64,000 nucleotides of DNA, taken from positions 16,351,875 through 16,415,874 of the forward strand of contig OZ037768.1 of NCBI GenBank assembly GCA_964035545.1. Direction: 5' to 3'. The stretch is from Bugula neritina. Lineage: Eukaryota > Animalia > Bryozoa. Below, piece by piece: positions 3,966 to 51,539 of the stretch; the first letter of the stretch is position 1; each line of letters starts with the position of its first letter. Both the position numbers and the translations under genes were made by a program. The notes under the pieces are model-generated. The model did no database searches and was not told where the DNA came from. It worked only from the letters and a program-made list of their open reading frames with translations.

Positions 3966-4049
3966 GACTAAAAGTAGAATAACAATATAAATAAAATACT
4001 TTAACTTATACGTGAATTATTACAAATACAATCAATAAATTATAATTAT

Positions 4050-5786: not shown

Positions 5787-6343
5787 TGTAGTAAACTGTG
5801 GGTTCTGAATGCAACTAGTGCCTACATGCTCTAGAAAGAATAAGCCAAGTATTTGAGTACAAATGAGGATAACCTTTATTGTATCAGATACAGCTCATGT
5901 GGTCCTACTACCAGCGAGCTCCAGTAGTAGTCTGAACTACACTGGAACTCGCTGGCTTTTATATACAAGCGAGACAAAGACATTCCTTTGTTGCCGAGAT
6001 CGGGGTTCCGAAATGCCGAATATCGGCATTTCGGGACTCCGAAATGCCGAAACGCCGATTTTCGGCATATCGGCATTTCGGAAGACCGAAATGCCGATCT
6101 CAGCAACAAAGGACACACACAAAAGAAAGCAACATTAGTAAAAGAAATATTACATAACTTCAGAATGCGTATTTCAGTAAAATTACATTATGTTGAGCTT
6201 TAACCGTAATTACCATACTTAGGCATTAGCAAGCTAACTTACTTAACTATAATTACAGAATTAAGAATGATACGCAACAGTATTTATAATATACTGTTGC
6301 ACGCTGTTATTTCGAAACTAAAAGAGGGTGAAAATCCATTACA
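5787..6343 (-). mobile_element. Solo LTR, family 2, copy A
   Basis: TG...CA ends with 4-bp TSD ATAC (5783-5786, 6344-6347); homologous in inverted orientation to 37843-38361; TATATAAAAG on the minus strand near 5956-5965. Confidence 0.85.
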
Positions 6344-22877: not shown

Positions 22878-25800
22878 TTACCATCCAAATACATATTCCA
22901 TTGTTTTTTTCCACCAGCCATCTTCTTGATTTTTTACATTTGCCTGCGGAATCTAAAAGGAAATCATATGGTGATAATTTCAAAAATGTTTCATAAAAGA
23001 GGGAATCAACAACCAAATTGATTCGTAGAAAGTGCATTCTTTTACCAAACACTTTGTAAACTTCAAAGTTTATACCCAAACACAATTAACACAATTTACT
23101 AATCAGCCAATCTTTTAAATTTAAAGCTTTCTCATTATGCTCACAGCTGTAGATTCCAGTCAAGAGCACATACAAGTTTTTGAAAATCCAGTATAGTATA
23201 TGCAGCATGTAATACTTGAACATGATTTGATGGAGCAGAGTCAAAGTCACACCAAGTAAAGTTAACGCTGCACAGATAATCATTATACTGAATAATTTAT
23301 TTGGAACAAACTTCCGACCTGAATTCAAGCAAACTTAAATGAATTAAAAATCCTGTATATATACACACAGGTACACACTCGCACACTTACATTAGTTGGT
23401 GGCCTTGAAGAAGTGTATGCTTTGGTCAAAGGTCGAATGGGTTGAGGTGTGTTGCCCAAGTTGCTATTGCTGGACTCGTACAGAGAGCCCAAAGTCTTGA
23501 GGGGAATTGTCTGCTCTACACTATGCAGTGTGATCTGACTGTGATCTACTGTTGGGGTGGTAGTAGAACCCCCCTGTCTGTTCATAACTTTCTGGTCTAT
23601 GCATTGTCTCACACCAACCATCATGTTGTCTCCTATCAGTTTACCGTTTTTACTTAACGCCTTTTTAGCTGCTATTTTTGATTTGTAGTGAAGATGCATC
23701 CAATTTCCTTCATTAGATATCTGGTAACACAAGGGCAACATAAACTAATTCACAATTTTTTTATTCCAACAACCATAAACTGCTTTTACGACGAATGGCT
23801 GTTGCCTGTTGACTTTAACAATACGACAACACATACATTACATAACTCTAAACAGAAACTTATTAGAGTTGAAGGTAATCAATTTCACAACATTAAACTA
23901 TGCCTAAACTAAGTATGAATGCAGCATCTAAAAAGCCTAGAACCAAGTCTAACATTAAGCCCGAAGTACCGTGTGTTCCAGAATAGTCCCGTACTCATTG
24001 AATTGCTGTAACATGTGTCCAACAGCTCCAGGGGCAAATCTACAAGCAAATTTCTACATTACAAACTCTACGATACAAATTGATGAGATAATTTTACAAT
24101 CTATGCATTCTCCATACCACCTAGTTAACTAATAGGATGTTTGCTATCAATTATGGCAAGTGCAGAGATAAATTGAGGTAAATTTTATTGATATATTATT
24201 TTAATAAGTTACTAAATGTATCAAATCAAACATATGATGAAGATAGTTTCATCACTTGAATAAAGATTTAATGGCTATTACGAATTGCAGCTGTAATCGA
24301 TTACTCTTATGATAACAATTACATTGGAATGGTTCTTTTAATATTAGATTATAATGATGAATAAATTTGAATGATCCAAAATAAAACTTTCCATAAATTT
24401 ATTCTCTTGTTTCAACTGAGCACAACTAACAAATTCTATAAGAATATTTATTAATGAAATGTTTGAGTTGGCGAAGCATTGACTTGACTTGCTGTAAAAA
24501 AAACCAATATTTATTTCAATAGTATTCAAAATTGTCACTTTTGCTATTCATTATTTTTGGTATTTTTAATATTATTATTATTTACTATTCATTGTTATTG
24601 CACAAGTATTTTGCACTAAAGATTCAAACACTGAAGACACAAAACACTAAAATATTACCAATTTGCTTACTCAGCAAATTTTGATAACTGTAGAATTACT
24701 ACACCAACTCAGTACTACTATACCAACTCGGTATTACTATAAAATGAAAATGTGCAGAAAATGATAGCAAGTCGAGCGGCTTATTCATTGCAAGAACTCG
24801 GTGAAACTGCCTTCCAGGTCAAATGGACTCAGACTGAGAATGTGTCTTTACTGTTGATACTTAATTAGTACTACTGTCAACCATTACAAGTGCTGTTGAA
24901 AATACTACCACCACTATTTCTGCAATCATCTCCGATACTGCTATTGCAGAAAAGACAACTCCACTATTCAAGACTTATGCACCAAATAGCTACTGGGTAC
25001 AACTGAGACATCACCATTACTAATACTGCCATCATGAAGTAATTTTGTCACTTTTAATCTGAAATGGTTGCATTCATGTATTTAAAACTAGTGACATTGG
25101 TAGCCTTTGCAATAACTTTTAATATCTGATTTATGATTATCAACTGTGAATGGACGCATATAACATGCATATCAGTAGCATTAGAGTTGTAACTTCTTGG
25201 ATGAATTAGAGATGAAACTCTAATAGTATATTTATGTATTGTAATTTGTGGCAATGTATGATATAAGATATTTTAACACATATACAGCAAATATAACAGG
25301 TAATTTACCATGCTTATCAACTAAATTTAACTAAACTAGAAGGAAATATATATTGTACAGCTAGTCAGAAAGAAAACAATACAAACCCAAACACTGTGAT
25401 CCAGGTTTCATCTAGTACATCATGGGGAGATAAGTCTTCGCTAAAACAATTAATTTATTTGCATTGTCAAATAACGATAATGAATAGAGACTATCACAAT
25501 TAAAGTTTAAACTGTATGTTTTTAGCATTAAGTTGATGTTTCAAGGCCTCCACTACAAGTTGTTGGTACATATCAAATATATAGAGCAGGCCACTCTCTC
25601 TTGAGTATAGAAGGGTAGGGTAATTACCCCTGAGTATAGAAGGGTAGGGTAATCACCCCTGAGTATAGAAGGGCACTCATCCCTGAGTATAGAAGGGTAG
25701 GACACTCATCCCTGAGCATAGAAGGGTAGGGTACTCACCCCTGAGTATAGAAGGGTACTCACCCCTGAGTATAGAAGGGTACTTACCCTTGAGTATAGAA

Positions 25801-27943
25801 GGGCACTTACCCCTGAGTATAGAAGGGCAAGACATTCACCCCTGAGTATAGAAGGGTAGGGCACTTACCCCTGAGTATAGAAGGGTAGGGTACTCACCCC
25901 TGAGTATAGAAGGGATCAACCTGGGGAGGAGACAGGAGTGTAGCACTTGCATTTATGGATTGGTGTAAAGATGTGTTTGATGGAGCTTTCACAGCTGGCG
26001 TTGAGAAACTTGACTGAGTAGCTACAGAGTATAGAATACTAATGTTCTCAGACAGTTCAGTATATTAGGGGAAGTGTTGGAACCAAGTGATGGAAACAGG
26101 TCTATTTAAAAACATGAAGCAGTCTATTTAATTACCTAACTATTTGTTACCTAGAGGGAGCGGCAGTGGTGTAGGGGTTAAAGTGTTTGCTTAGTAAACA
26201 TGAAGTCATGGGTTCAAACCCCGACAAAGGCCATTGGTGATGTTAGGAAGAGCATCCAGTAAAAATTACTCCTGTCCTCCATCTGAATAAGTCCTTAGCC
26301 CGATTTAATAAAAAAACTCCTTCCATTACGGGTTTCTCACAGAGATGGTGACTACTAACTTGTGTGAGTTTATTTAACTAACTAACTAACCATTGTTTAC
26401 TTACCGTTATGTTGATGGGCTGAGAGTAAGGGACTTGAGAAGCCACAGGCCAGCTGATGCTGTAAGAGAACACAACTCCAGTCAGCAAGGAAACATAAAA
26501 TATACACATCTGATGTTGGAGAAGATGGGCAGATGATAAACCATAATATTACAAACACAAGAGATGGCCCACCTTTGACTCTGCATTGTCTAGAAGACTA
26601 GTATGAAGGTTGTGTGAAGGTGTAGACAGACTGGAATCTAAAAGTCCAACAACAGGTGGAGCCGACAGTTTATCCTTGAGACGATCATGACTAACACTCT
26701 CACTGAACAAACAAAGTAAGAGGTATTACAAGGCAGCTATTAGCTAAGTTCATCTAGCAAAACACAATCATACTCGCCATAGGCCTATTTAAATTTAAGA
26801 AAATATTGATTAAAAGTCCTGCAAAATATCATTTAGATTCTGTATGCATATGTGTATGTATATATGCATGATTCTGCATATATACATGCATGTATGAATG
26901 TATAATTACTCTAATCTATCCTGAAACTTCTTTGAAGAGCTAAAGCTGTGTGGGAGATGAATGTTGCTGTGATTGGCTGATCCAAAGCCAGTAGACGCAG
27001 ACGGCCACATACCTCTAGATCCATAGACAGGCTACAAAGTACAGTTTAATAACAATACCACTGGTTCTTTTACCAACAGATACAACTCTCAAATTACAAT
27101 AGCTATAAGCTGTGCAGGTTTTGAACATAGCTACAAAACTTAATTTGTATTATCTACTAATAGTTAGCAGTTGTCTTCTCTCCATTTGAGAAAATTACTC
27201 GGGTGTAAAACCAGATTTGGCATTTAGTTAATGTTACCCTCTACTAGTAAATTGTTTCACTAAATAAATTTGCATGATACTCATGATAGTTACATACAAA
27301 TAAACCAATTGCCTAGTATTGGCTTACGATCTAAAATAGCCAATAAAATAGAGCGAAACATATTTCAATATTATACACCAGCTCCATTACCTATAGTTGG
27401 TAAGCCATAATATTATATGATTCAATGTAAGTTTAAAATAACCGACGAAGTCCACATGGAATAACAAGAGTATAATGTATAGAAGGGTCAACTATAGTAA
27501 AAGGAGATTAATGCATCTTATATGATACAAAACTGGTGTATATATATACACACATACAGTTTGTGGTCCACTGGGTCCCGGTGTGTGATCGCCCAATAGG
27601 AATCCAGGTAAGTATTGAGATGAATTATGAGATCCAGGGTGGGGAGATGATGGTGATCCCATAACCATTGGCTCAGCACCTACAACCAATCTAACAGCTG
27701 TACCACACAGGAAAAACATGTTTACAATTTTGCTAATATCATGTTTTACAACTAAATTTTACTTAGCCAATGTAAAGTCATAGTAGAATTGAACATTTAA
27801 CTATACTGTAACACAAAGCAAGTAATTTAAAACTAGATGCAACCTGCAACACTCCTGATTTACTTACGAGACATTGAGCTTGTTGGGCTACTCAATCTCC
27901 CTTGCCCATAGAGACTAAATCGGTTATCAGCAGAGATATCCAT
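22878..27943 (-). CDS. NUP35: Nucleoporin NUP35/Nup53 (382 aa, 10 coding exons)
   Basis: Exons 27943-27868, 27679-27558, 27031-26910, 26702-26573, 26459-26405, 26021-25898, 25440-25387, 24039-23970, 23720-23391, 22943-22878 (1149 nt); motifs [32 protein letters not shown] (RRM), GNWMHLHY, C-terminal TMEYVFGW*. Confidence 0.95.
25601..25914 (-). repeat. Minisatellite of 24/29-bp units x12 copying the NUP35 exon 6/intron junction
   Basis: TGAGTATAGAAGGG core at 25602, 25631, 25660, 25684, 25713 (one mismatch), 25742, 25766, 25790, 25814, 25843, 25872, 25901. Confidence 0.92.
26155..26370 (+). mobile_element. tRNA-derived SINE
   Basis: A-box-like TGGTGTAGGGG, B-box GGTTCAAACC, central GATGTTAGGAAGAGCATCCAG; four copies in the window. 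Confidence 0.8.
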
Positions 27944-29580
27944 GAGCTTAAAGTCAGTTTATTGTGTCTTTAGATTTACTCTTGCTTCCACGAGGCTCTA
28001 TAGCACATATATACATACATTATTTACTTGGTTTTATAGAAATAAACCAAATAAAATTTTGATGGTGCTATAATAACCATTATCAGAAATAACCTATTTG
28101 TGTGCACACACAGTAATTGTTGTGAGCACAAAGACAGCAAAAAATATTGTATTTATGGTTTCAGTTTATGGCCATAGTTTTATCGTATGATTATCTTATA
28201 CATGTCAGCACTTTTTTACCAATTATAAAAACTGTGAGTTGGTGCAGAAATATTTTGTGAAATACATAAGCTAAAGCTTTCGGAAAAATTACGTACGATA
28301 TAAGAGTAATGTGATCATTTTCAAAATTGTTAATCAAATTATCAACTGTTAAGATAAGCAGGCGCAAGATATTTCATTGTACAAACTTCATGTTTCACAT
28401 CTGTTATTACTTATACATGGAATTTGGCTAAATATATGTTATATACTCAAGTATAACCGAGAAGTAATAAAGATGGATGACCATGATACTTTTATTATGA
28501 TTCAGTAACTTACAGCCAACACAGGCAAGAAGACAGAAAATTGGGTGGTAGCCTAAGTTTGCTGGGTCATGTTTGGAACATTTTGTAAATTGGAACAACT
28601 CTGGAGTTAGCATGTTTGATACTAGAATTAAATTTGTTTTTATTTACAAAAGGATCTAAACACAATTTTTTTAAATATAAAAATTAATAATACAATTATT
28701 GATGATTTAACGAACGCTCAAGTAGCCTATAGACTATAAATAACAACAATAACATATTAAAACATCACAGTTTATACTAAAAATATTTGTATGATTGTAT
28801 TTACAATAAATATATTGGTTAAATTTTTTAATTGGTATTATATTATTATTAGCAGTTTTAAATTACCAACAACAATATCAATAATAATTGTGATTCAGTA
28901 TTTTGTAACACTAATTCAACTTGTAACTGTAAGCATTAAAAAATAATATTAAATTTAACATTCAAATGACATGCTTAAATTGAAGATTGACAAAATTGAT
29001 ACTCACAATCACAATGTGAATGTAATTCAACAACTTAAAATTGACCAATCCATACAAATATCAAATTAGATGTCAGTTTAAATACCTAATGATAATCTTA
29101 CAGTGCAACTAATAATAGATGTAATAGTAATAACTAATATTTACTCATAATCAGATATTGAGTTAATATTAATCATATTCATCAATCATATGAATTTTAT
29201 TAAATTAACTTTTGGTATGATAATCAATTTATTATGGTATAAAACAAATATTAATAAGTATAATAATTATATTTCAATTTTTTAGTCACACTTATAGCTA
29301 TACTTTTCATTATTAGACTTGGTTATTAATAGTACAGGCACTAATCTAATAGTAATAGTATTAACTAATTAAATAAGTAATTAATTAAAATGGTATATAT
29401 CTGTAACACTAATACTAATACTAATAGTAATACTATCACCATAAACTTGAATTTGAAGTGATGAACTTCAACTTGAACTTGAAGTTCATAGTAAATGTAA
29501 TACTAATATTAATAGTGATACTAATAAGTATAACTATAAGCAATAATTAATAATAGCGCATGAGTTATCGCACTATGACT

Positions 29581-30050
29581 GGGTTACTGTCGTTTCATAC
29601 ACAAGTCCTTTTGTACACCAGTTGTTTCGTACACAAGCTGCTATCCATCTCGCACGCAAAATGAATAATAAATTAATCCACTAGATAACCACTTGATTGA
29701 TACTAGTTTACCTATTCATTGCATCCTAGCTTTCTCTCTCACTCCTAGCATATTTTTGAAACAAAAAAGTTATTTATCAACTATGTGCTTCCATCTACTG
29801 ATAACAATATCCAAACCAAAAGAGCAGTTCTATCTTAACATCTAGGCTACCTATCACAATAACAAATAAGAATGCGGTGAAATGAACTGTGTAAGTTACT
29901 AATTCTTGAGAGCAGTACTTTTTGACTCATATATCAAATAGAAGATAAATATAAAATAAAAAGTATGTATTTTAGTAATTCATATTGATGTGTACAAAAC
30001 GACTTATCAGATGCGTAGGAAATTACTTGTGTGAGAAATGGCCTGTACTG
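29581..30050. mobile_element. Non-autonomous DNA transposon with subterminal repeats
   Basis: Degenerate inverted subterminal repeats (tttcgtacacaagtc / gacttgtgtgagaaa type); CTATGACT direct repeat on both flanks (29573-29580, 30051-30058). Confidence 0.55.
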
Positions 30051-30224
30051 CTATGACTATCTGCTATTCGTTCCTATTGTACTAGTACTACTACTACTAC
30101 ACTACTACTATTACTAGTACAATAACAGATAACTTCTACTTTTAGCACTCCTAGTCTACTACTAGTTCAATAACAGATAAGTTCTAGTTCTACTTCTAGC
30201 TCTGCTACTACTAGTGAGTAGTAG

Positions 30225-30529
30225 TGTTATAATTTTCAGATTTAGGGTTGATGTGCTATCCAGAGAGTCTATTTATTTACTATAGAACTGCACCAGGATA
30301 AGTCGAGTGAACGAGTATATTTTACACACAATTATACATTATAAAAACGATACATTATTTCCAAACAAGTTACACATCTAATCTATTTCACACTCTAGCT
30401 TCGACTGAGTTAGCAGCGGGAAACTACAATTGCTGCTAACTATCAACTACGCTAATTGGCTATCCATTGTTCCGGGTCAATTACGTGACCCTACATGTTG
30501 TGCTGCTGGTAGTTCCACGAACCACCACA
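30225..30529 (-). repeat. 3' LTR (305 bp)
   Basis: Identical to 37432-37736; minus strand has CCAAT, an Inr-like TCAGTC and AATAAA. Confidence 0.97.
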
Positions 30530-30540
30530 CCGCCCCCACC
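30530..30540 (-). other. Polypurine tract
   Basis: GGTGGGGGCGG on the minus strand immediately before the 3' LTR. Confidence 0.8.
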
Positions 30541-30819
30541 AGCAGAAAGCCATCTTTCTGATATATACATAAAAAAAAACATTCATTAGTAACCGCATAC
30601 ATCAGTGGACAAAATAATACATAATATACAGGACGAGACATAATAATAGACAGAGTCATTATAACGATCCGTTGCATACAAGTGGCCAGCTGTAGATAGA
30701 CGAGGAATACTAGCTAGCTGTGGTGTTAGACAGGGGATAACCTGTTAAGCAGTCAAACATTTGCATGACATCTTGGTTCCTCCCGAGATGTGAAGTTGCG
30801 GAGTATTCTGGGTAGCCAA

Positions 30820-31641
30820 CTAGAGTCCTTGTTGGGCACGCCGGTGTTTGGCTTGGCATGTACGCAGTTTCCGTTTCATACGGCATACGGATCCCTTTAG
30901 CTGGAAGAGTCCTGTGGTAGTGTTAAGTAGATCTGGTGCCAGCTGGGTGAACTCTTCTTGTAATCGTAGGAGGCGTTCTTCTACTGTAGCCAGGCGTACT
31001 GGGTCCGGGGACGGTGTCCGTCTGCGGCGCAAGGGTGGACTGGGGGACCTGGTTCGTCTCTTCGCCGGTGTGGGGGAGATCTCTCCTTCTTCTGGATATG
31101 TAATTTCCTCGGGGGTGTATGTAATTTGAGGACGGTCAGACACCAACGGGGATTGTTGGCGGGCGTTGTCTAACACACGTTGGAACCCCGAGGACAGAAC
31201 GGCTAACAACATGGCCTTCTTCACCAGAGGTCGTATAAGTGTGAGGAACTCCGGGTATAGCTTAGCGTCGACCACGTAGTTTTCTCCAGGGAAACAGCCC
31301 GCCGCTCGGTGTCTGGTGACGGGGTAGGGATACACATCATTGTACCCGCAGGGGCAGAATGTTAGTAGGAGATGAGCATTGACGTGTAGTTTAAGGGAGC
31401 GGTGAGAGGCGCAATCTTCACCACAGATCTGGCATCTCGTTCGTCCTCTGGACCCCCAGGCCGTTTCTATTTCTTCCTCTGTTTGTGGAGACACCCACCG
31501 CCAACGGCGGCGTAGTGGCTCAGGCCGATCACCACTAGCACACTCCTCCGGATACGGAGCGGGAAGTGTTCTATCCCGTACCCTGGTTGTAGCGGGTCGA
31601 GTGTAATCTGAAAAAGTTTCAACAGTGTTAATACAGTACAC
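30820..31641 (-). CDS. Retrotransposon ORF3: C2H2 zinc-finger, Arg/SP-rich, coiled-coil accessory protein (probably spliced; coding exon 31607-30820)
   Basis: 273-codon ORF starting at GTG; CQIC-x12-HVNAH finger followed by CPC...H-x4-C; KRRTRSPSPPLRRRRTPSP; C-terminal heptads; acceptor ttttcag| at 31608. Confidence 0.8.
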   Translation of the reverse strand: MYCINTVETFSDYTRPATTRVRDRTLPAPYPEECASGDRPEPLRRRWRWVSPQTEEEIETAWGSRGRTRCQICGEDCASHRSLKLHVNAHLLLTFCPCGYNDVYPYPVTRHRAAGCFPGENYVVDAKLYPEFLTLIRPLVKKAMLLAVLSSGFQRVLDNARQQSPLVSDRPQITYTPEEITYPEEGEISPTPAKRRTRSPSPPLRRRRTPSPDPVRLATVEERLLRLQEEFTQLAPDLLNTTTGLFQLKGSVCRMKRKLRTCQAKHRRAQQGL

Positions 31642-31921
31642 TGCTGTGTTGTCAGCTTGAACAGCTTGGCAACTCCTAATTCAGTTACCTCGTAGAGATT
31701 AATGGTAGTGAATAGTCAGATAGAACACGTATTGCAATGAGATTATAAAAATCTCTAAGTCAAACTGAGTTCTTACTACGGTATTTCACTAACCTATCTC
31801 CAGCTCGATTGACTCAGTGAGTCAGAGCTGAGCGATGCAATCTAGTTTCGTATTAAGATATAGTTAACTCACCCCACGATCTGTTGTCGTAAGACATACT
31901 GAATGTGTGAAATGGTTTGAA

Positions 31922-32512
31922 CTACTGCTTAGAAACACGTCTACTCCTGACTGCATCAGCGTATGAAAAGATCGAGCAACGTGGTTGGGGTGCGTGATTA
32001 AGACTTTGTGCACCCGGCGGATGAATTTTGTTTCTATTTCCGCCGATACAAAAGTTGATTTTTCCGTGGTGTTGACAACTCCCACATTTGCTCGATTCTT
32101 TTCTCGTACGGTTTTCCCCTAGACTTTCATGTGTGCCGCTTTTAACGCAGTCACATACGAAGTCCTTCAAGTATGCGGGGGGTTGCCTCGTACGCTGTCC
32201 CCTTTCTAGGGGGGGTGACACGCTTGCCGGTTCGTTAGTAGGGGCCTCTAATGGCGTCTCTACTTCACCGTTAGCGGTCACCTCTTCTTGTTCTCCGGAT
32301 GGAGCCCCTCCCTCCGTGGGGGTTTGCACTTCCGGAACCGGCTCGGTTTCTGGAAGTGATGGAATTAGACTTGGCGGTGGCGGACACGCTTCTGTTGACA
32401 AAAGCTGCCGCTCCTCGCTCACCAAGTTTTCTTCCCGCGGTATGATCACTTCGTATTCAGGTCCATGCCGCCGTCGCCCGCGCGTTGTTGTTTGCCTCCT
32501 GGGCTCTAACAA
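31922..32512 (-). CDS. C-terminal tail of Pol/integrase, out of frame at a C12 run
   Basis: Pro/Glu-rich linker then RGQRTRQPPAYLKDFV, a motif typical of Gypsy integrase C-termini; would be in frame with pol if the run were C10 or C13. Confidence 0.7.
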   Translation of the reverse strand: MLEPRRQTTTRGRRRHGPEYEVIIPREENLVSEERQLLSTEACPPPPSLIPSLPETEPVPEVQTPTEGGAPSGEQEEVTANGEVETPLEAPTNEPASVSPPLERGQRTRQPPAYLKDFVCDCVKSGTHESLGENRTRKESSKCGSCQHHGKINFCIGGNRNKIHPPGAQSLNHAPQPRCSIFSYADAVRSRRVSKQ

Positions 32513-35500
32513 CGGGGGGGGGGGGCTTCTCCCACTCCGCCGGGGCTAGCCCAATACGGTTTCAAGCGAGACTCATTCTGGATAGACACCTGTCCTGAGC
32601 GCTCAATCTTGTACGTATGATTGGGCATAGCCTCGACGACCACGTAGGGGCCTACGAACTTAGGCTTCAGCTTATCAGCCTGTCCGCGACGCCTACGGTA
32701 ATTGACCATCCACACCTTATCTCCCGTTTGATAGAGAGGTGGTTCATCGGAATCTTCGTGCCGCACCTTCCACTGCTGTTGACGCAGTATATCGTGTGCG
32801 GCCTTCATCCGTTCCACTAGTTCACTGGCATACTCGTGAACCAAGTTGTCTTGCTCTGGAACGTGGTAGGTGAGATGGTCAGGGACACGAGTCTCTCTCC
32901 CGAGCATCAAGAGGTTTGGGGTCTCACCAGTACTGGTGTGTGGGGTGCTACGGTATGCACGCATGACTTGTGGCAATACCGTATCCCATTCCTCTTGACC
33001 TCGTCCAAGGAGGAGACTCCGGAGTGCATCACCTAGCATCCGGTTGTTGCGCTCCACCACCCCGTTACCTTGAGGGTGGTAGGGGGTGGTCCTGCTCTGA
33101 TTTACTCCCCAGAGGTGGCAAAGGTCGCTCATCAGTTGAGACTGGAATTGAGCGCCTTGATCAGAGTGTATCTGTTCGGGAAGCCCAAAATAACAGAATA
33201 CATGTTGGTCTAGCGCCCTGGCCACTGTTGGGGCTGATGCATCTGGGATAGCCAGAGCATCCGCCCACCTAGTAAAGTGGTCGGTTAGTACTAGGATCCA
33301 ATTATTGCCTCTGGGGGTCAGGGGCATGGGTCCGACCAGGTCTACAGCGACTACTTGCCAGGGCCTACCAGCATATAGCCTCCGCCGTCCTGCCTCACCA
33401 GGGGGGCGGCTATGCTTACTGGCCTGGCAGATCTCACACTGTTTGACTCTGAGCCGGACGTCACGCTCCATCTGCGGCCAATACCACCGGAGTCGTAATT
33501 TGGATATCACTCTCTTAACCCCTGCGTGGGCCTGTTTGTGAGTATCCCAAATCAACTCACGGCGGATGGCTGTGGGGCAGACTACCCTCTTCCTTTCCGA
33601 GTGTCTGCCGCTGGCAGCTAGAGAGATGGTTAGTAACCCATCCTGCCCGATCCGCAGCGAGTCCCAACGCTGACAGTATAGCCGGAACTCGGCGCATCCC
33701 TGTCGTATGCGTTCCTCGCTGGGTCGTCGCCCTTCCCTTTTGGCCCGGTATATGTCTGCCACGACTCCAGGCAGCTCTTCTTGGAGCTTCTTCAGCTCTC
33801 GAACATTACCGGCCAGTACAGGGTTGGCGCGGAGGTTTTGTACATCCTCCGGGGACTCATCAACTCTTTGCCTGAGTTGACCTTGATCCCAGTCAAACGG
33901 TGCTCCGTGATGAGCCAGCGTCTCCAACTCGCATCGCGGGGGACCTCCATCCCTCCTCTCGATGTTGAGACACTGTTTGCAACCTCCGTCAGGTCGGCGA
34001 CTCAACCCATACGCATTGCTGTGTCTCTTGCCCGGTCGATGTTCGATCCGGTATGAGAATTCAGCTAGGATTTCGAGCCACCGGGCGACCTGACTAGAGG
34101 GCTCTGCTCTCCTGCACAACCAGATCAGCGAGGCATGATCCGTACGCAGCCGGAACTTCCTGCCATATAGGTATGGTCTGAAGTGCTTCACTGACTTGAT
34201 TACTGCCAGCAGCTCCTTGCGGGTAGTGCAGTAATTTCGTTCAGCGGGTGAGAGAGACTTGCTGTAGTAGGCTACTACTACCTCTCGGCCTTCCTGCACT
34301 TGTGACAGCACAGCGCCAACATTTTGGTCACTGGCGTCCGTGTCCAGGATGTACTCCAGAGTGGGGTCTGGGTAGGCCAAGATGGGCGCCGTTAGTAGGC
34401 AGCCCTTTAGGCGGTCGAACGCTTCTTGCTCGACTGGAGTCCACTGCCACGTCACTCCCTTTGCGGTGAGCCGGTTTAACGGCTGGGCTATGCCGGCAAA
34501 GTCTGGTATGTATTGCCTGTAATACCCTACCAGCCCCAAGAAAGCCCGGAGTCCGGTCAAGTCTTGGGGGGTGACCCAGTCTTCTACTGCCCGTACCTTT
34601 TCGGGATCCGTTGCCACGCCGTTTCGACCGACAACGTGCCCCAGATACTTGACCTCCGGCTGCAATAGAGCGCACTTGGAAGGTTTGAGCTTAAGACCGG
34701 CACCTCGGAGTCTCTCGAAAACCTCCTGCAGACGACTGATATGTGTCTCGAAGTCTGGAGAGATTACGATGACATCATCGAGGTAGACCAGCAGCGTCTT
34801 CCAATGGAGTCCGCTAAGGACTTGTTCCATCAGCCTCTGGAAGGTGGCTGGGGCGGAGGTTAACCCGAAAGGCAGCACCTTCCACTTCCACAAACCGTCC
34901 CGTGTGATAAACGCCGCTTTCTCTTGGGCGTCGGGACTCAGAGGAACTTGCCAATAGCCGCTTAGCAAGTCTAACGTACTGAAGTACTTGCTGCCGGCTA
35001 GGGCGTCCAATGACTCGTCAATACGAGGTAGAGGGTAGGCGTCCTGTATGGTTACGCTATTGAGTTTGCGATAGTCCACACAGAACCGCCAACTGCCGTC
35101 TTTCTTCCGGACCAGTACGACTGGCGAGCTCCACGCACTATGGGCGGGCTCTATCAGTCCCCGGTCCAGAAGATCCCGTACTTGTCGGCTAACCTCCTTC
35201 TCTTTCTCCGGCCCCAGCCTGCGTGTGGGCTGCCGGACAGGGACTGTCCCTGCAGTCAGCGGTATTTCGTGTCTGACAATTCCAGTCAGTCCCACGTCAT
35301 GCTCTCCGCTGCTGAACACATCACCGTAGTCGCGTAGTAACTTAGCCATAGCTTGGCGTTCTCTGTTACTCGCGCAGCCGCCACTGGCTGTTTCGTATAA
35401 CTCCCGGAGATGTGTTGGGACTGCCCCCCGTCCCTGAATAGGGCACTGAGGGGGTGCCTCCGTCGCATCACCCAGCGACGGGCCTACGTCTCCCTCCTGA

Positions 35501-36558
35501 ACAGAGTGAAAACGGCCCAGCATCGACCCAGCCGGGAGCTTGATAGGCTCGGTAAAGGGGTTGACACACTGCACTAAGATCTCCCCTTGCTCAGTCAGCT
35601 GATTCAGACTGCTGGCAAGTTGGATCTTTTCGTGCGCGCCTTCAACCACCCCGAGTCCAGAGATCCGGCTACTATTCACCCTGCAGTGAATGGTAGCCCG
35701 GGAGCGGCCTGGTATGATACGGTTGCGTACCACTTGCACACCTCCCACTAAAGGGCGGCCGAACTTGTCGACGCAGGCGAGTTCACGCCCGGACATCATC
35801 ATTGCAGATCTGCTAAAATCTATGTGACATCCGTGCCGTTTAAGGAACGGCATCCCGAGGATAGCATCCTCCTTGAGCTGACTGACGATGAACGTCTCTT
35901 GGATCGTTTGATCACGGACTCGTCCCGTCAGCTCAATTATGCCATAGAAGGGAAGGCACGACCCGTCAGCGAGGGTGCCGTATTCCCCTTCGTATGCTTC
36001 CATCTCGCCCCTGACCCTAGTACTGAGGGTGTCGAAGAGTTGGCGGCTTAAGAGGTTTGTGGTACAGCCCGAATCAATGAGGAAAGTAACAGCTTTGCCT
36101 TCCAGTTTACCGGGCAAGAAATAGCTGTTCCCATGGGGCTGCACCTGAACTCTCCCTTCAGGCCTTACTCTCGCAGGGAGTACCTCCCTCGCTTTGAGTC
36201 GCGAAGGAGGTCTCTTAGGGCGGTGGTAGGTAGGCCTCGGGGGTGCCGAGGCTAGATTCTCAGCTACCTTTGTGGGCTCCCATCCAGATTCTTGGACTTG
36301 TAGCCCTGTGAATCTGTTGTGAAGGGGCATAGAAAAGGCAGCTGCGGGGCGAAGCCCCTTGCTGGTCCGTCGTGGCTGTTGCCACTGTTGGTTGCCAGTA
36401 CGCGGTACCCGTCTGGGTGACCTGCGTTTCTTCTTCCCTGGAGGTTTCATCGTCGGCCCGCGGAAGGTGGGAACATCTGCGGGCCGCGGTAGTTTAACCC
36501 CTGATTTAGGAAGGGACAATATCGGCGGAAATGTCCTTGATTTCCGCACTCCCAGCAA
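32506..36558 (-). CDS. pol: Pol polyprotein (aspartic protease, RT, RNase H, integrase)
   Basis: FLIDSGC (protease), LPFGL and YLDD (RT), DTDASD (RNase H), HKQAH..CEIC zinc finger, VAVD/HSDQG/ERNN DDE core, KFVGPY (GPY/F). Confidence 0.97.
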   Translation of the reverse strand: MLGVRKSRTFPPILSLPKSGVKLPRPADVPTFRGPTMKPPGKKKRRSPRRVPRTGNQQWQQPRRTSKGLRPAAAFSMPLHNRFTGLQVQESGWEPTKVAENLASAPPRPTYHRPKRPPSRLKAREVLPARVRPEGRVQVQPHGNSYFLPGKLEGKAVTFLIDSGCTTNLLSRQLFDTLSTRVRGEMEAYEGEYGTLADGSCLPFYGIIELTGRVRDQTIQETFIVSQLKEDAILGMPFLKRHGCHIDFSRSAMMMSGRELACVDKFGRPLVGGVQVVRNRIIPGRSRATIHCRVNSSRISGLGVVEGAHEKIQLASSLNQLTEQGEILVQCVNPFTEPIKLPAGSMLGRFHSVQEGDVGPSLGDATEAPPQCPIQGRGAVPTHLRELYETASGGCASNRERQAMAKLLRDYGDVFSSGEHDVGLTGIVRHEIPLTAGTVPVRQPTRRLGPEKEKEVSRQVRDLLDRGLIEPAHSAWSSPVVLVRKKDGSWRFCVDYRKLNSVTIQDAYPLPRIDESLDALAGSKYFSTLDLLSGYWQVPLSPDAQEKAAFITRDGLWKWKVLPFGLTSAPATFQRLMEQVLSGLHWKTLLVYLDDVIVISPDFETHISRLQEVFERLRGAGLKLKPSKCALLQPEVKYLGHVVGRNGVATDPEKVRAVEDWVTPQDLTGLRAFLGLVGYYRQYIPDFAGIAQPLNRLTAKGVTWQWTPVEQEAFDRLKGCLLTAPILAYPDPTLEYILDTDASDQNVGAVLSQVQEGREVVVAYYSKSLSPAERNYCTTRKELLAVIKSVKHFRPYLYGRKFRLRTDHASLIWLCRRAEPSSQVARWLEILAEFSYRIEHRPGKRHSNAYGLSRRPDGGCKQCLNIERRDGGPPRCELETLAHHGAPFDWDQGQLRQRVDESPEDVQNLRANPVLAGNVRELKKLQEELPGVVADIYRAKREGRRPSEERIRQGCAEFRLYCQRWDSLRIGQDGLLTISLAASGRHSERKRVVCPTAIRRELIWDTHKQAHAGVKRVISKLRLRWYWPQMERDVRLRVKQCEICQASKHSRPPGEAGRRRLYAGRPWQVVAVDLVGPMPLTPRGNNWILVLTDHFTRWADALAIPDASAPTVARALDQHVFCYFGLPEQIHSDQGAQFQSQLMSDLCHLWGVNQSRTTPYHPQGNGVVERNNRMLGDALRSLLLGRGQEEWDTVLPQVMRAYRSTPHTSTGETPNLLMLGRETRVPDHLTYHVPEQDNLVHEYASELVERMKAAHDILRQQQWKVRHEDSDEPPLYQTGDKVWMVNYRRRRGQADKLKPKFVGPYVVVEAMPNHTYKIERSGQVSIQNESRLKPYWASPGGVGEAPPPRC
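36434..36498 (-). promoter_or_regulatory. -1 programmed ribosomal frameshift signal (gag-pol)
   Basis: G_UUA_AAC heptamer (36498-36492) in the gag frame, 5-nt spacer, stem CGGCCCGC/GCGGGCCG; loop UUCCC could pair with downstream GGGAA. Confidence 0.75.
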
Positions 36559-37400
36559 AAACTGACTGTTTCTCCCTGTGGCGGCGCCGATGGCCGCATG
36601 GGCTCAGGGGCGGTACTCACTGGGTTTTGTGGTGTCAGTGTTGCTATCAGCTTGGCTAGCATGTCCGTCAGTTGAGTGACTTTTGATGCCGTCGCCAACT
36701 GGGACACGGCAGCCGCGGCGGGGGTTTCCTCCCCTTGTCCCGCGGCCGTGTCTGCGCGGTCTATCTCCACTTGGCGGGAGCTTCCGCGACTTTTATGCAT
36801 TTGATTAGCTAGGAGGTAAGCTTCCCCCTCAGTCAGAGCATCTTCAACGGTGGTGACTCCCCTAGCTAGAAACTGGTGGTGGAGACCCAGATCGTCGACA
36901 GATGCTATGAAAGCCTCGAGGGTGTACCTCTCGCGGTTGACTGGGGGCAAGTCGCTGTACGCGATCTGTGCCAGCTTCATGACCGCGGCGGCATGCTCCC
37001 GCAGCGGGGTGCGGGGATCACGCCGCAACCTCTGCAATCGGGCCCTGGCATCTGTAGCAGAGAGGCCAAAGCGGGCCCGCAGAGAAGCAAAGATATTATC
37101 AATGTCTACACCCAGCCCATAGGGCTTGGCTTTGTCCATCAATGCCATTCTAAGCTTCAGCAAGGCCACCCTAGGGGGCCACTGAGCGACGTCCATTACG
37201 TCGCTAAACTCTTGGATAAATTGTTCCACCTCCTCTTCACCCGTGAAGGTGGGCGCCTTTAACCTGTAGCGGTCCTCAGCTAGTTCTCGCGGAACCCTTC
37301 GCTCTTCTACTACATGGTTAACAGGCATTGTCTCTACAGCATTGTCTCTACGCTCACCTTCAATTGCCGGTGGTTGAGTTCCAGCATTTTCAGTCTCCAT
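36447..37400 (-). CDS. gag: Gag (capsid plus CCHC nucleocapsid knuckle), 317 aa
   Basis: LKAPTFTGEEEVEQFIQEF capsid-type start; CWECGNQGHFRRYC zinc knuckle; overlaps pol, which is in the -1 frame. Confidence 0.93.
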   Translation of the reverse strand: METENAGTQPPAIEGERRDNAVETMPVNHVVEERRVPRELAEDRYRLKAPTFTGEEEVEQFIQEFSDVMDVAQWPPRVALLKLRMALMDKAKPYGLGVDIDNIFASLRARFGLSATDARARLQRLRRDPRTPLREHAAAVMKLAQIAYSDLPPVNRERYTLEAFIASVDDLGLHHQFLARGVTTVEDALTEGEAYLLANQMHKSRGSSRQVEIDRADTAAGQGEETPAAAAVSQLATASKVTQLTDMLAKLIATLTPQNPVSTAPEPMRPSAPPQGETVSFCWECGNQGHFRRYCPFLNQGLNYRGPQMFPPSAGRR

Positions 37401-37412
37401 CTTGGATGCACT

Positions 37413-37430
37413 ATCCCACTGCTGCCACCA
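37413..37430 (-). other. Primer-binding site complementary to the tRNA-Leu 3' end
   Basis: TGGTGGCAGCAGTGGGAT, 1 nt after the 5' LTR; its complement ATCCCAC(T)GCTGCCA-CCA matches the metazoan tRNA-Leu(AAG/TAG) 3' end as I recall it. Confidence 0.85.
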
Positions 37431-37431
37431 C

Positions 37432-37736
37432 TGTTATAATTTTCAGATTTAGGGTTGATGTGCTATCCAGAGAGTCTATTTATTTACTATAGAACTGCAC
37501 CAGGATAAGTCGAGTGAACGAGTATATTTTACACACAATTATACATTATAAAAACGATACATTATTTCCAAACAAGTTACACATCTAATCTATTTCACAC
37601 TCTAGCTTCGACTGAGTTAGCAGCGGGAAACTACAATTGCTGCTAACTATCAACTACGCTAATTGGCTATCCATTGTTCCGGGTCAATTACGTGACCCTA
37701 CATGTTGTGCTGCTGGTAGTTCCACGAACCACCACA
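37432..37736 (-). repeat. 5' LTR (305 bp)
   Basis: Identical to 30225-30529 and followed by the PBS. Confidence 0.97.
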
Positions 37737-37842
37737 GTAGTACCTGTACTACTACTACGTCTACTACTACTAGGTCTAGTAGTAGTACTACTAATACTAC
37801 TACTAGTACTACTACTACTAGTACTACTACTACTAGTACTAC

Positions 37843-38361
37843 TGTAATGGATTTTTACCCTCTATTAGTTGCGAATTAACAGCGTGCAACAGTATATTAT
37901 AAATACTGTTGCGTATCGTTATTAACTCTGTAATTATAGTTAAGTAAGCTAGCTTGCTAATGCCTAAGTATGGTAATTACTGTTGAAGCTTTCAACATAA
38001 TGTAATGTTATTGAAATACGCATTCTGAAGTTATGTAATATTTCTTGTACTAATGTTGCGTATCAATTTTTATGCTGTAATTGTGTAGTAGATTTTTGCA
38101 TGTACTTGTTTCCGGTTGCGAGATCGGCATTTCGGGCCTCCGATCTCGGCAACAATGAAAAAGCACTGTATCTTGTTGTATATAAAAGCCAGCGAGCTCC
38201 AGTGTAGTTCAGTCTACTACTGGAGCTCACTGGCAGAGGACCTTCACTATTATATATAATTCAACTAAATAAAAATTTCTTCAACTATACAATACATCTT
38301 GTTCTCTCTAACAAAGAGTATGTTCAGGCACTAGTTCTATTCAACCCACAAAAATATCACA
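37843..38361 (+). mobile_element. Solo LTR, family 2, copy B
   Basis: TGTAATGG...ATATCACA with 4-bp TSD CTAC (37839-37842, 38362-38365); TATATAAAAG near 38179, TCAGTC at 38209, AATAAA near 38268; homologous to 5787-6343. Confidence 0.87.
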
Positions 38362-40342
38362 CTACTACTGTACTGGTACTACAACTACTCTAGTAATACT
38401 AATAGTAATAGTAGTACTACTACTAGTACTAGTAGAAAAACCATGCTATCACTATCAGTATCTGAGACTGATGGTGAAACTGAAAGTGATACTTGTAGTC
38501 ATTCACTCATAGTCATACACACTATCACTATGACTATGACTATCATACTCATACTGATACACTTGCAGTCAATGTCATACTGATAGACGATAACGGATAA
38601 TGATACCGATATGGATATTGATACTCATGCTATTACTATTACTATGAGTAATAGACTAATAGTATTACCATTACTATTAGTATAAGATTAACTTTAAGTA
38701 TTAGTAATTAGTATTACATTTTGATTTACAGTTTACTGGGTAGTGGGTATGATTATGATATTCATATTCATATTGATATTGATAACGATGGTATAAGATT
38801 AAGTAGAAATATCAATATGTGTCATTAAGTTTTATAATATATATTCCATAAAATGATTTATTAACATAACATATAATGACAGATTACAACAATTTAATTT
38901 TTGTGATTAACTATTATCATTATCATTGTGAGTATCAGTACAAGTATGAATTGAATCGACCACATTTACTTAGTTTTAAAAACACTCTCAGGAAGCGCAA
39001 AAATTACTTACAGCTAATCGGTATTATTGAAATAATTTTTCACCTACGTTCAGCCCAAGGTTTCGCGAGCCATCAATTTGCTAGTTTTGTAGAAGATAAC
39101 TCCATATATGTGTGTAGACAGTCGTTCACAAGTTTGCTATAAGATAAGTGTGATACAGTATTCACATTCATACCCCCTTTGAAAAAAAGTATACTAGTTG
39201 GAATTATCAGAATTAGCACATTACTGATTACTATTTTTGACATGATGCAAACAATTATACATAATTTTATACCATTATTGACCACTTGAAGTGTTGACGG
39301 AAATAACAAGACACATAAAGCTTACAAGATACAAGATTTTCGATTAACAGGCAGAAAGCGTAATAAAAAAAAACTTTAACACCAGTAGACTTGTTTATAA
39401 CATACACAAAATCAAATTTGCTATGCAGTTTTATATCATAGCTACATACTAAGTTCATCATATTTATTCACATATTCGGCTACAATCCAAGTTGAAATTA
39501 TTTCTACCTTTATTCGTACAAAAGAAATAGTTAATTCTAAACAAACATGCTCAATGTTGCTTTTCATGTTAAAAGAAAACTGTCATTACACAAGTATCAT
39601 TAAAATGTACTATAAAGTAAACACATGACAGCACAATTTAAGATACATTCTATAGCAATTTGTAGTTAACAATTGAATTTTAGTTTAACCAGTATATTGA
39701 TGAAGGATATTATATCCAAGTGTTGATTTAGCCGCTTACCTGCGGTAAAGATTTCAAGAAAAAAATAGAATTACAAAAATACTCAGCAAGCTTTTAAACT
39801 ACTTAAATTAAAAAAAAATATTTGAGTTTTCTTAATTTTAACATACTTGAGTCCTGAACCTGGAGCTTCTGATGCAGGTTTATGCCACTAAACACTAAAA
39901 TGTCTTTTATTTTGCTAAGAAGAATTCATCAGCATACAAAGAAGTTGTTTCAATACATTTTACCTGCATTCAACATAAAATGAGTCATGAATAGATAAAT
40001 ATGTTTTGGCTTCATCATATATTTACAGAATGAATAATTCAGAAATACTAAAACTGCAACCAACAAAATATTACAATTACAGTATGACTTCACATGAGAA
40101 CCTGACTGAACAAAAACTAATATCTGTTCTTTTATGAAAACTAAAAAAATAAAAAAATACTTATTAACAGCAAATAAAGTTAAAAAAAACAGATGAAAAT
40201 ATGAAAATGTTGATTATAATGAGTTGGGCGGAGAACTAGTTGTGAGTCACGGAGTAATCTCAGAGCACTCTGATGTTGATCAAGTCCATGAACTTCCCTA
40301 TCATACTAAGTCTTAGGTGACAAGGGCTCATGTATCTTACCA

Positions 40343-45042: not shown

Positions 45043-48000
45043 AATCATATTATTCTTCGCATTCAAAATGCTAAACAGACATTGTTAAATAATCAATTTA
45101 AATCAATTGAATGGAATGACAACTCCAGGCCAAGTATTCAATATATAAAATGATTTTGCATTCTTTCAAAACTACTTGAAAAAATCGTTTCATTTTCACT
45201 TCCGTAGCATAAACTTTAGAAGAAGATATATTAAATTACAGAAGGCACAACCATTTAATATCCAAGGAATATTTACCTGCGCCTTGTTGCAGAAGAAAAA
45301 AGTTTTGTTTCCAAATACTTTCTTGCGCTGTGGGTTTGGTCTAAGCAAGTACTTATCATTTTCTTCAGATAATAAAGGAATAAACCTACACAACAACAAA
45401 AAACATAAAAACCAAAAGCTGTTAAATTAGAAACTATGCAAACGCTTTGTTGCTGCATATCTTATATTGTATATATGAAAATCTGTACTGTTAATGAATA
45501 TTACAGTGCGTGAATAAGATACTAGATTACTTGGTGGAATGATTTAATATATAAAATACAGTATTTATAAAGTTAGAGCACACAACGAGTAAGAAAAGCT
45601 TACAATGTAAAAATCTATTATATTGTTATGATAAGCGGAATAGACAAACTATATACTGAGATTGCACTAAGTTGCAAAAATCATACCACAACTATAGCCG
45701 CAACTTTAACCCTGCTAACCTTACAAATACCCAATAAAATGGCAAGGAAGCGATACACTAGTATGTAGACTTTTAGACAAAGTATGAAGACATAAGCTTG
45801 AGACATGTTTAATGTGTACTAGGTGCTACAACATATGCTTTCAAAGTATTGTATATAAGAACAGAGCGACATTATTTAAAATTTTTACTTGTCAATATCA
45901 GGCAGGGAGGTTTTCTTCTTGACACTGTTGACTAGAGCTTCAAGGTACTCTAAGGTGACAATAGGCTTGTTACCAGCAAGAGCGCATACAGCCTTTACTG
46001 TGATTCCAACTTTCCCCATAACCAGAGTCACGCACTCCTTACTCCATTCATTCACCTACAGAAAATGCAGAAATATTATCTGCTCATCAGAAATAGACAA
46101 GCCTATAAAATAAACATGATGTGGAGATATTTGACTAAACTCCAGCAAGTTTATAGTCGCCATCCCTGTGAGAAACCGCTGATGAAATGAGGTTTTTGGT
46201 AAATCAGGCTAAGGACTTATTCAGATGGGGCACAGGAGCAATTATAACTGGGTGCTCTTCCTAACATCACCAATGACCTTTGTCGGAGTTCGAACCCATG
46301 ACTTTGTGTTTGCTAAGCCAACGTTCTAACCCCTAGACCACGGCTGCACCATCATGGAGATATGGAGATATTTGACAAATACTCTAATAGGACAGATTTA
46401 GACTTGAAGTTTTAACTTGCGACACCAACAAGAACTTGTAAATAGTAAACACAGTCCTTATAATATTAAATGAAGTTCCACAAATAAACAATGTTTCACA
46501 TCCCAACTTCCAGATACACTGCCTACACTTTCAATGCAAATATACTTCCCTCAAACACTCAGTTAGTAACCATCAGCAATATGTGGCATTAAGTCAGCAA
46601 TACATGGTATTGGGTCAGCATCTCCACCTGACTGACTGACTGACTGACCTGGTGACCCCCAAGCTGCAGGAGATACTCCTTGAGTTTCACTTTATCAGAT
46701 CCAGAGAGAGAAGAAGAAGCCACCACCAGCGGGCAGTACTTTGCTCTGGAAAGTATACAACAGACAAAAATAAAGCAAAATGCTTTGAAATTTGTAACCA
46801 ACTTGAGGACAAATCAACTGCAGAACAAATATAACATACACATTTATGGATATGTTACATTATAGTCTAGTTTAACGTGAAACCTACTGTAATTCATGTA
46901 GTATTTTCTGGCTAACCAAAAACAAAAGAGTTTTTGGGTTAACCATTGCTAAGGCGCAAATTTCTCTATCAGTCTCAAAATTTTAAAGCAATATGTATTA
47001 AATAGCATCTCAATTTTGTGTGTTTAAAATTATAACAAATTAACCTATTAAAATTTAGTTATCACAAAAACTAAAAATATGAACTATGTCTATGTAACTA
47101 TTTAATACAATATAGCAAACATTATTAAAATAGTGTTGATTTAAAAAATATTGAAAACAAGTGCAATGGGAAGCAAAACCCTACAGCAGTACCTGTAAAC
47201 ATTTTTCATTTGTCCAAATTTTACTTCATCACCATCAGAAAGAACACATGTGCCTCCCGATAAAGCCTCTCCATTTACATTAGTTCCGAATTTTGAAAAG
47301 TCAGTAATCGACAATGCTGGAGTATCCAAACTGTTTATCTGGCAAAACAAAAGCTTCAACTTAAATATTCTTCTACTCAATAAAACTCAATAGAAATGTA
47401 TTTCCACCTGATACAAACTTCTGTGTGGTATGATTGTTATGAGCCTAAGCAGCAGCGATAAAAATAAATCAGTAGAAAAGAGAGAAAATTAGTTCATTTA
47501 AGCGAATGAGGCCTAACTAAAGTGATGACATTGCCCAGATTAATCTTCACCTAGATTACTCCATACTGTGTGATGTTAAAAGAACATCAAAGTTGTTATT
47601 TATCATTTAGATGAAAAGCATTCTATTTTGATAAAAGATTCGTCATGCATAAAAGGTGCCATAACTTGTTTTTAGAACCCTTTACAAAAACAAGACTAGT
47701 TGCAGTAACCCTGAATCTAAAATTTAGAATCCAAATATGAGTATCTATTATATTTCACTATGTTTCCAAAGTTCAAATTATGTTAACGAATTTTTAAATG
47801 GAATGAAAACATAACCCAGCAAAACAAGAATTTGTCAGATAGAGCAATTTGAATGAAATGCTCATTAGCGCATGTTGTAGTATGTAGGATTTACTAAATT
47901 GCATTGGCTCTTGTTATATTGTATCTAATGGTAGTCACTATTGATAGAGCTTTGTATGACATCCCCAAGAAAACCAGCTGACTTCTAAATACAGAAGTTG

Positions 48001-49310: not shown

Positions 49311-49688
49311 CATTGGCAGCGTGCAAAAAATCTTTCCAGCCGAAAAATGGGCTGTTGTGTGCGCATTTCAGATAGATTTCATACAGGCAAAATACTGAAT
49401 GGCCAGTGCAGAATGTTGGTGCCGATTCGATCTAATTGGTTGAACATCATTTAGTGAGTACACTTTTTGAGTTTTGAGCTTTTTTACTTTCTGTATTCAA
49501 GTCGTCTTATCAATGCAAAGCTTGAAACTCAAAAACTATACTCACTAAATGATAATCTGCCAATTAGATTAAAACCGTACCAAATTTCTACACTGACCGT
49601 TCAGCATTTTGCAGGAATGAAATCTACCTGAAATACGCACACAACAGCCCATTTTTAGGCTGGACAGATATTCTGCATGTAGCCAGTG
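49311..49688. mobile_element. Foldback/MITE-like long inverted repeat upstream of the NBN start codon
   Basis: About 165-bp imperfect arms (aaaaatgggctgttgtgtgcg...cgcacacaacagcccattttt) around a loop of about 35 nt. Confidence 0.75.
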
Positions 49689-50419: not shown

Positions 50420-50722
50420 GATTTTAGGTAAAAATGGCACAGGTAATAATGGCACCAGTATCAAAGGCACAAATAGAAAAGTAGGAAAAACTGGCACACT
50501 ATTGTTAAATTTTCCCAAACCCGAAACTCAAACCATCAATCCTTAAACCCCAAACTTAAGCCCCCATTCCCAAATCTAAACTACCATCCTAAATATCCAA
50601 CCCCCACCCCAAACCCCAATATTGAAAATGTGCCATTTTTGCTACTTTTCCATTTGTGCCTTTATTACCAGTGCCATTAATACCTATGCCATTTTTACCT
50701 GTGCCATTTTTACCAGACACCC
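50420..50722. mobile_element. Mutator-like MITE, copy 2
   Basis: Inverted GGTAAAAATGGCAC arrays; 9-bp TSD AGTAAAGAT (50411-50419, 50723-50731). Confidence 0.82.
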
Positions 50723-50789
50723 AGTAAAGATATATTTAAAAAAATAATGTACAGTGAATGCAAAACAGGCCTGCTTAGCCTGTCTGTGG

Positions 50790-51302: not shown

Positions 51303-51530
51303 CAGGAATATAGTGGTACCCATACGCCGCCGTATGGTCTAGACTCTAGAAGAAAATAGACTGCTTTAGGTCCTACGCCCGTAGGCGTATGGGCATATTT
51401 TTGAAAGTGTTACTGATGATTAGAGCACAGGATAGTTAGGGCATCCTCACTGAGAATATTATAAACTAGGCGGCCCCCTAGACCCCGGCCTGGGAGTATA
51501 GCCTAGAATCTTTTTGCCACTACATCCCTG
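51303..51530. mobile_element. hAT-type MITE (228 bp)
   Basis: TIRs CAGGAATATAGTGG / CAGGGATGTAGTGG; perfect 8-bp TSD GCATTAAC (51295-51302, 51531-51538). Confidence 0.85.
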
Positions 51531-51539
51531 GCATTAACT

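Follow-up and report, generated by a model that had tools for sequence, protein, structure and literature searches.

We analysed a 64,000-nucleotide stretch of the genome of the bryozoan Bugula neritina (contig OZ037768.1, positions 16,351,875 to 16,415,874 of assembly GCA_964035545.1), hereafter called the window, which contains one full-length Ty3/gypsy retrotransposon flanked by long terminal repeats (LTRs) and two solo LTRs, A and B, of a second family. The empty target sites reconstructed for these insertions all fit one palindrome, R-TA-[N-TA-N]-TA-Y or RTANTANTAY (R, purine; Y, pyrimidine; N, any base), in which the bracketed part is the 4-bp target site duplication (TSD) with TA at its centre. 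The pattern is real locally; its genome-wide extent is not yet established. The full-length element also has a third open reading frame (ORF3) for a two-zinc-finger domain, and the occurrence of this unnamed domain at the integrase C-terminus across a wide clade is the new part of our findings. Feature coordinates are collected in Table 1.

Insertion sites of the three LTR elements

The full-length element shows the hallmarks of Ty3/gypsy elements (Metaviridae): direct LTRs with TG...CA ends, a primer-binding site, a polypurine tract and a short TSD, together with the order gag, protease, reverse transcriptase, RNase H and integrase, the pol domains being recognised by Pfam. The primer-binding site is presumably of the tRNA-Leu type. 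A GPY/F motif stands behind the integrase core, where SH3_Tf2-1 and MLVIN_C match residues 1291-1337 below their curated cut-offs. Near pol residue 865, the motif at the end of RNase H is unlike the one found in most relatives, despite the full identity of the two LTRs.

The first-pass annotation had placed this element and solo LTR B 106 bp apart in a single (ACT/AGT)n tract, both with the TSD CTAC, and its coordinates were confirmed. Its distinction of two LTR families was also upheld, as LTRs A and B align over 492 columns with 87% identity and neither is related to the LTR of the full element. For solo LTR A, the reported insertion in a related tract holds in the sense that the LTR stands at the edge of an (ATN)-type tract that covers its left flank and not its right one; the TSD given as ATAC is the plus-strand reading, which is GTAT in the LTR's own orientation, so that orientations had been mixed. 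This slip is harmless because the target site is palindromic. Repetition of both LTR types is seen in the sequencing runs, as many variant contigs in X3 and as relatives in X1 and X2; the summed depth, which shows it too, is not a copy number.

Within its LTRs, the solo-LTR family has a GC-rich palindromic array built of 8-bp units. The array is expanded in A (5984-6113) and short in B (38120-38153) and lies just upstream of a TATA-like box; a hairpin follows just downstream of the box. Helenus TRIMs, miniature retrotransposons with terminal repeats, have 4-bp TSDs in animals (PMC10886601) and a tRNA-derived sequence in their LTRs. LTRs A and B share a TSD of this length, and ARAGORN, which may miss a degenerate tRNA, found none in the window.

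With the three insertions removed, 55.4 kb of the window count as host DNA. Period-3 TA tracts, written (TAN)n, make up 5.0% of it, and all three reconstructed sites are inside such a tract or at its edge. Strict TAC/TAG tracts make up 0.9%, and of the three insertions only the full element and solo LTR B lie in one. None of the eight non-LTR repeats found by self-BLAST touches a tract. Compared with the three LTR insertions, this gives a Fisher p of 0.006, which rises to 0.022 with a single count for the shared tract, both figures resting on three sites in two tracts and on a tract definition set after the sites were seen.

Degenerate hexamer and triplet tracts of the ATACTC, TAATAG and ATACTT types are abundant in the window (728-6900, 29100-29540, 38460-38790, 51500-53000 and 63139-63700). 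They often form inverted pairs and are apparently concentrated between genes. Over one piece of tract sequence (38380-38420), depth is very high in each of the three runs.

A palindromic target motif

The motif RTANTANTAY fits 84 of the 55,400 host positions (0.15%). Read in element orientation, the full element and solo LTR B occupy an identical 10-mer, from which the site of A differs at two of ten positions; between 0.3 and 0.6% of host positions come as close to this 10-mer as A does. The TSD is centred on TA at all three sites, which is one of three registers and has a chance of 1/27 given a triplet tract. Such a common register suggests that the integrase itself chooses the site. In the shared 322-bp tract the motif fits 13 of the 322 positions and both insertions fall on it (p = 0.0016), the same test giving p = 0.024 for TANTANTA.

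Tracts hold 57 of the 84 motif sites (68%), and an element that chose sites by the motif only would land in tracts three times out of three with a probability of 0.31. The tract bias thus needs no separate tether or chromatin effect. The earlier proposal that two LTR families share a preference for microsatellite-like tracts survives in a changed form: the shared preference is unlikely to have arisen by chance in the window, but its unit looks like a 10-bp palindrome and not the microsatellite as such.

A further scan for solo LTRs, guided by the motif, returned 32 TG...CA pairs whose 4-mers match, the three insertions already described among them; by a rough estimate, the short pairs are about as frequent as chance would give. 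One of the candidates, 317 bp long (22311-22627), has TGTAA...TTACA ends and a TTAG duplication on TA-N-TA-N-TA outside the tracts. This possible third solo LTR was not counted because it has no homology to the known LTRs and was found through the motif itself.

Evidence beyond the window

For three records of a related LTR in run X1, the match ends precisely where the LTR does, and the flank merged from them fits R-TA-N-TA-N with an agreement of 0.64. A fit of this type from three random host flanks has a chance of 0.009. The related family in X1 therefore lends weak support from outside the window. In run X2, the alignment of one relative of solo LTR B continues three bases past the end of the LTR, in keeping with N-TA. 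Since run contigs break at LTR junctions and their alignment skips the tract, they provide no set of flanks. Two joints in run X3 between an LTR piece and a tract piece (37435 to 38394 and 38271 to 38393) were left uncounted because their sides comprise only 20-22 bases. Scans with ORF3 and pol queries gave no locus in viral or genome contigs.

The ORF3 zinc-finger domain

ORF3 has 57 close relatives at 45-98% identity, and a profile search finds 117 representatives. For Pol, 160 relatives were found and 120 were listed and analysed. A first profile of the domain detects it in 25 of these 120 at E < 0.001, and a broader one in 36, the best E on reversed sequences being 1.3. In every one of the 35 Pols where the domain can be placed, its position is downstream of the integrase and in frame with it. 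The median tail behind the integrase is 579 residues in domain-bearing Pols versus 142 in the others. A quick integrase tree of 116 rows, built without five of the 120 Pols (one of them domain-bearing) whose integrase cover was short, unites all 35 domain-bearing Pols and the window element in one clade of 93 rows, with a Shimodaira-Hasegawa-like approximate likelihood-ratio support (SH-aLRT) of 97. The remaining 57 members of this clade have no fused domain, a separate ORF being invisible in protein data.

Nine residues (W11, C32, C35, H48, H52, C58, C60, H73 and V86) are kept in at least 90% of 78 aligned domain sequences. The domain, of about 100 residues, is modelled with a predicted local distance difference test score (pLDDT) of 95.4, whereas the model of full-length ORF3 is poor (47). 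Pfam has no family for the whole domain and returns only zinc-finger matches. Foldseek searches of PDB and BFVD gave no domain match at E <= 0.001; VIA-align reached a best Z of 3.8 with no whole-domain match, which does not prove a new fold. In the ESM Atlas, only unnamed and C2H2 clusters match. A search for longer domain-bearing proteins produced one match among 7,986 crowded candidates and says little.

Residues 28-80 superpose weakly on DNA-bound C2H2 pairs, among them those of Kaiso, SALL4 and CTCF (Z 3.0-3.7, root-mean-square deviation 2.5-4.1 Å over about 50 residues). In the first helix, positions +2 and +3 are mostly K or R (22 and 14 of 25 sequences, respectively), and +6 is hydrophobic in 16 of 25. 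The domain differs from a classical tandem C2H2 array, which has three or more fingers joined by canonical linkers: it has two fingers only, separated by a short non-canonical linker of about four residues from the last His to the next Cys, and the fingers are embedded in a larger folded domain.

We predict that ORF3 is made from a spliced RNA led by the gag start. The candidate donor at gag codon 15 is the best of 312 GT sites and is in phase with an acceptor located where ORF3 conservation begins, although this acceptor (31608) ties with two others on pyrimidine count. The same short peptide occurs at the predicted junction in 16 of 58 ORF3-family proteins.

The first-pass annotation had also named the long integrase tail as a possible source of specificity. 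We found nothing specific to recommend it as a reader of DNA: the tail is of low complexity, is out of frame with the integrase in this copy, and its ORF has no Pfam family and no BLAST match among the 120 listed Pol relatives. Its motif lies about 160 residues from GPY, versus a median of 152 in 54 relatives. The frame break in the tail and the RNase H departure of this copy may reflect real damage or an assembly error.

Two stand-alone relatives of the domain (P0196 and P0244) are uncharacterised multi-isoform proteins at NCBI from another bryozoan, Watersipora subatra; they may be element ORFs called as genes, or domesticated copies. Two related Pols (P0138 and P0177) carry PF22769 along with PF00692, which we take to be dUTPase.

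Other features of the window

A SINE-like (short interspersed) repeat is present in four copies that are 74-85% identical (12348-12486, 26154-26383, 46125-46353 and 61452-61659), none of which adjoins a tract. Inverted-repeat elements resembling MITEs (small transposable elements with inverted repeats) occur at 49311-49688, 9588-9683, 16698-16980 and 50426-50730; the last two, which are related to each other, have tandem units of 15 bp. Pfam recognises the Nup35 RRM and Ras in host exons (23328-23744 and 54418-54741), and we assume an NSA2-like gene at about 8580-11115.

Table 1. Features of the three LTR insertions and of the shared tract (window coordinates)
Feature	Position	Strand	Remarks
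Full-length Ty3/gypsy LTR retrotransposon, 7,512 bp	30225..37736	-	4-bp TSD, GTAG on + / CTAC in element orientation
5' LTR, 305 bp, TG...CA ends	37432..37736	-	100% identical to 3' LTR
Primer-binding site, begins TGG, 1 nt past 5' LTR	37413..37430	-	
gag ORF, single CCHC knuckle, ATG at 37400	36447..37400	-	zf-CCHC E 0.15, below cut-off
Predicted splice donor, gag codon 15, phase 1 (37357)	37352..37360	-	best of the GT sites
pol ORF: protease, reverse transcriptase, RNase H, integrase (H2C2, DDE core, GPY/SH3-like)	32506..36603	-	Pfam
Pro/Glu-rich integrase tail, usual R-x-P-x-Y-L-x-D motif	31922..32545	-	out of frame with pol at 12-G run (32514-32525)
Predicted splice acceptor (31608), phase 1 in ORF3 frame	31608..31622	-	where ORF3 conservation begins
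ORF3: zinc-finger domain and C-terminal long helix (coiled-coil-like)	30820..31680	-	no ATG before domain
Conserved two-zinc-finger domain	31141..31527	-	homologous to integrase C-terminal extension of related elements
Polypurine tract	30530..30540	-	
3' LTR, 305 bp	30225..30529	-	100% identical to 5' LTR
Solo LTR B, 519 bp, second family	37843..38361	+	TSD CTAC; 106 bp from full element
Solo LTR A, 557 bp, family of B	5787..6343	-	TSD GTAT in own orientation (ATAC on +)
(ACT/AGT)n target tract, left part	30076..30224	.	
(ACT/AGT)n tract, middle part, element to solo LTR B	37737..37842	.	
(ACT/AGT)n tract, right part	38362..38436	.	

Discussion

We consider it somewhat probable that the integrases of both families prefer the palindrome R-TA-[N-TA-N]-TA-Y and that the tracts supply such sites in bulk. 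Under this explanation, the integrase multimer would bend the target at the central TA step of the 4-bp stagger and would favour TA steps at a distance of 3 bp on both sides, and (TAN)n tracts would be hit as a by-product of the motif preference, with no tether involved. The ORF3 domain would then be an integrase-associated accessory module of the whole clade, made here from the predicted spliced RNA. What we observe is three sites with one register and a motif concentrated in tracts, and from this we infer the integrase as the cause.

Several points tell against this explanation. The motif was derived from the same three sites, which lie in only two tracts, and the flank in X1, which had been seen before the motif was written, is a consensus merged from three records of a different sample. 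A narrower second alignment to the runs showed no row of outer flank at an LTR end among the 13 of 21 loose-end rows listed, and scans with LTR-end patterns returned three viral and four metagenome matches, all seven unrelated, and none in genome contigs. The agreement among the three sites looks stricter than the low-information motif of the 412 clade. The insertion of two families 106 bp apart could mean that a tract-level attractor acts on top of the motif. Finally, for the solo-LTR family the link to an integrase is one that we infer.

Palindromic targets are well known for related integrases. LTR retrotransposon target motifs are palindromes that reach up to 3 bp past the TSD, which is 4 bp long in the gypsy group, and the 412/mdg1 clade has a weak ATAT core, CTAC having been reported earlier for mdg1 (PMC3276498). 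The Drosophila members of this clade (412, mdg1, blood, Stalker2 and Tabor) resemble the insertions described here in the 4-bp TSD, the TA centre and a palindrome longer than the TSD. According to the published description their motif is low in information with T...A flanks, whereas the sites in the window have RTA...TAY, a 3-bp periodicity and a host full of (TAN)n tracts. The centre thus agrees in three of three sites and the flanks differ from the published description, with n = 3. To our knowledge, no zinc-finger ORF3 occurs in elements of the 412/mdg1 clade. Third ORFs are familiar from the insect errantiviruses, where ORF3 is env and is expressed by splicing. The window element likewise has its third ORF between pol and the 3' LTR, here with predicted splicing from near the gag start, but this ORF encodes a zinc-finger protein: neither it nor its 78 aligned relatives has an envelope match in Pfam, only zinc-finger matches being found.

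Ginger transposases, which have a gypsy-like integrase, use strict palindromic targets with 4-bp TSDs, CCGG and RTATAY (PMC2836005). Ginger1 and Ginger2 thus combine a gypsy-type integrase fold with a palindromic target as here, but they are DNA transposons without reverse transcriptase or LTRs, and their motifs are different. Insertion into simple repeats has parallels as well. Micron reportedly targets microsatellites, namely TA dinucleotide repeats. MuTAnT is a DNA transposon that targets TA microsatellites (PMC4486113). As with these two, copies in the window are found in simple repeats, but theirs are TA dinucleotide repeats, whereas here LTR retrotransposons occupy degenerate trinucleotide tracts. 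The accessible text of PMC8556966, PMC13326412 and PMC3411680 has nothing on targets of this kind. Within the literature covered, to which Repbase and subscription journals do not belong, there was no description of the motif, of the domain or of LTR elements targeting trinucleotide tracts.

Another explanation would dispense with a strong preference: LTR insertions would survive in the intergenic DNA where the tracts lie, with one local hot spot shared by two of them. By eye, the tracts do gather in intergenic DNA (at about 0.7-6.9 kb, 29-38.8 kb, 51.5-53 kb and 63 kb), insertions of 0.5-7.5 kb should be better tolerated there than in the introns of a compact genome, and the effective sample is two tracts. 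We nevertheless regard this explanation as unlikely. Differential retention cannot account for the register or for the choice of one exact 10-mer within a tract (p 0.0016-0.04), intergenic regions consist mostly of non-tract DNA, and the X1 flank fits the motif.

The first-pass annotation had suggested that the zinc fingers could supply the specificity. In such a scheme the domain of ORF3 or of the integrase tail would bind (TAN)n DNA, or a protein or chromatin on it, and tether the complex, while the integrase core would set the register. A role of the domain in target choice is plausible. [quoted passage not shown] Chromoviruses resemble the present clade in that the GPY/F region of a Ty3/gypsy integrase is followed by an accessory domain. 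The accessory part is a chromodomain in their case, whereas here it is a two-zinc-finger module with a long helix, fused in some relatives and a separate ORF in the window element; no chromo family matches pol, tail or ORF3 in Pfam at E up to 1, and the domain folds as zinc fingers. The weak superposition on DNA-bound tandem C2H2 pairs, the basic residues at helix positions +2 and +3 and the landing of two families so close together also speak for a tether.

Tethering is improbable in our judgement, however, as the motif alone accounts for the tract bias. The domain has only two fingers with a short non-canonical linker and a mostly hydrophobic +6 position, and nothing links it to the solo-LTR family; no target sites are known for its domain-bearing relatives. 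In the window element ORF3 is a separate frame, predicted to be joined to the gag start and not to the integrase. The match between three base pairs read per finger and a triplet repeat, which the first-pass annotation had invoked, is no evidence. A broader version of the tether scheme, that a large invertebrate Ty3/gypsy clade carries an undescribed two-zinc-finger module, fused or as a spliced ORF3, which would read (TAN)n and steer insertion into intergenic tracts as safe havens, as a DNA-reading counterpart of the chromodomain, appears quite unlikely.

We think it very improbable that the tracts attract every integrase of 4-bp stagger simply as DNA that is open or bends easily, with no base read beyond the central TA: flexible central pyrimidine-purine steps are a general integrase preference, enriched most at short TSDs and largely independent of chromatin (PMC4422553), and the tracts are rich in TA steps, but TA-centred 4-mers alone account for 11% of host positions, and the flanking TA at -2/-1 and +1/+2 and the R and Y ends are kept in all three sites.

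As palindromic motifs of gypsy integrases are already known, the preference of the integrases for this site would on its own add a new example without establishing a new principle. Even so, it would illustrate how an integrase that prefers a 10-bp site can turn an abundant simple repeat into a sink for LTR elements. The ORF3 domain is the stronger lead, a well-folded zinc module without a family that is found across a wide integrase clade and switches between fused and separate forms. Should this domain prove to choose the target DNA, an LTR retrotransposon would have a targeting domain that reads sequence.

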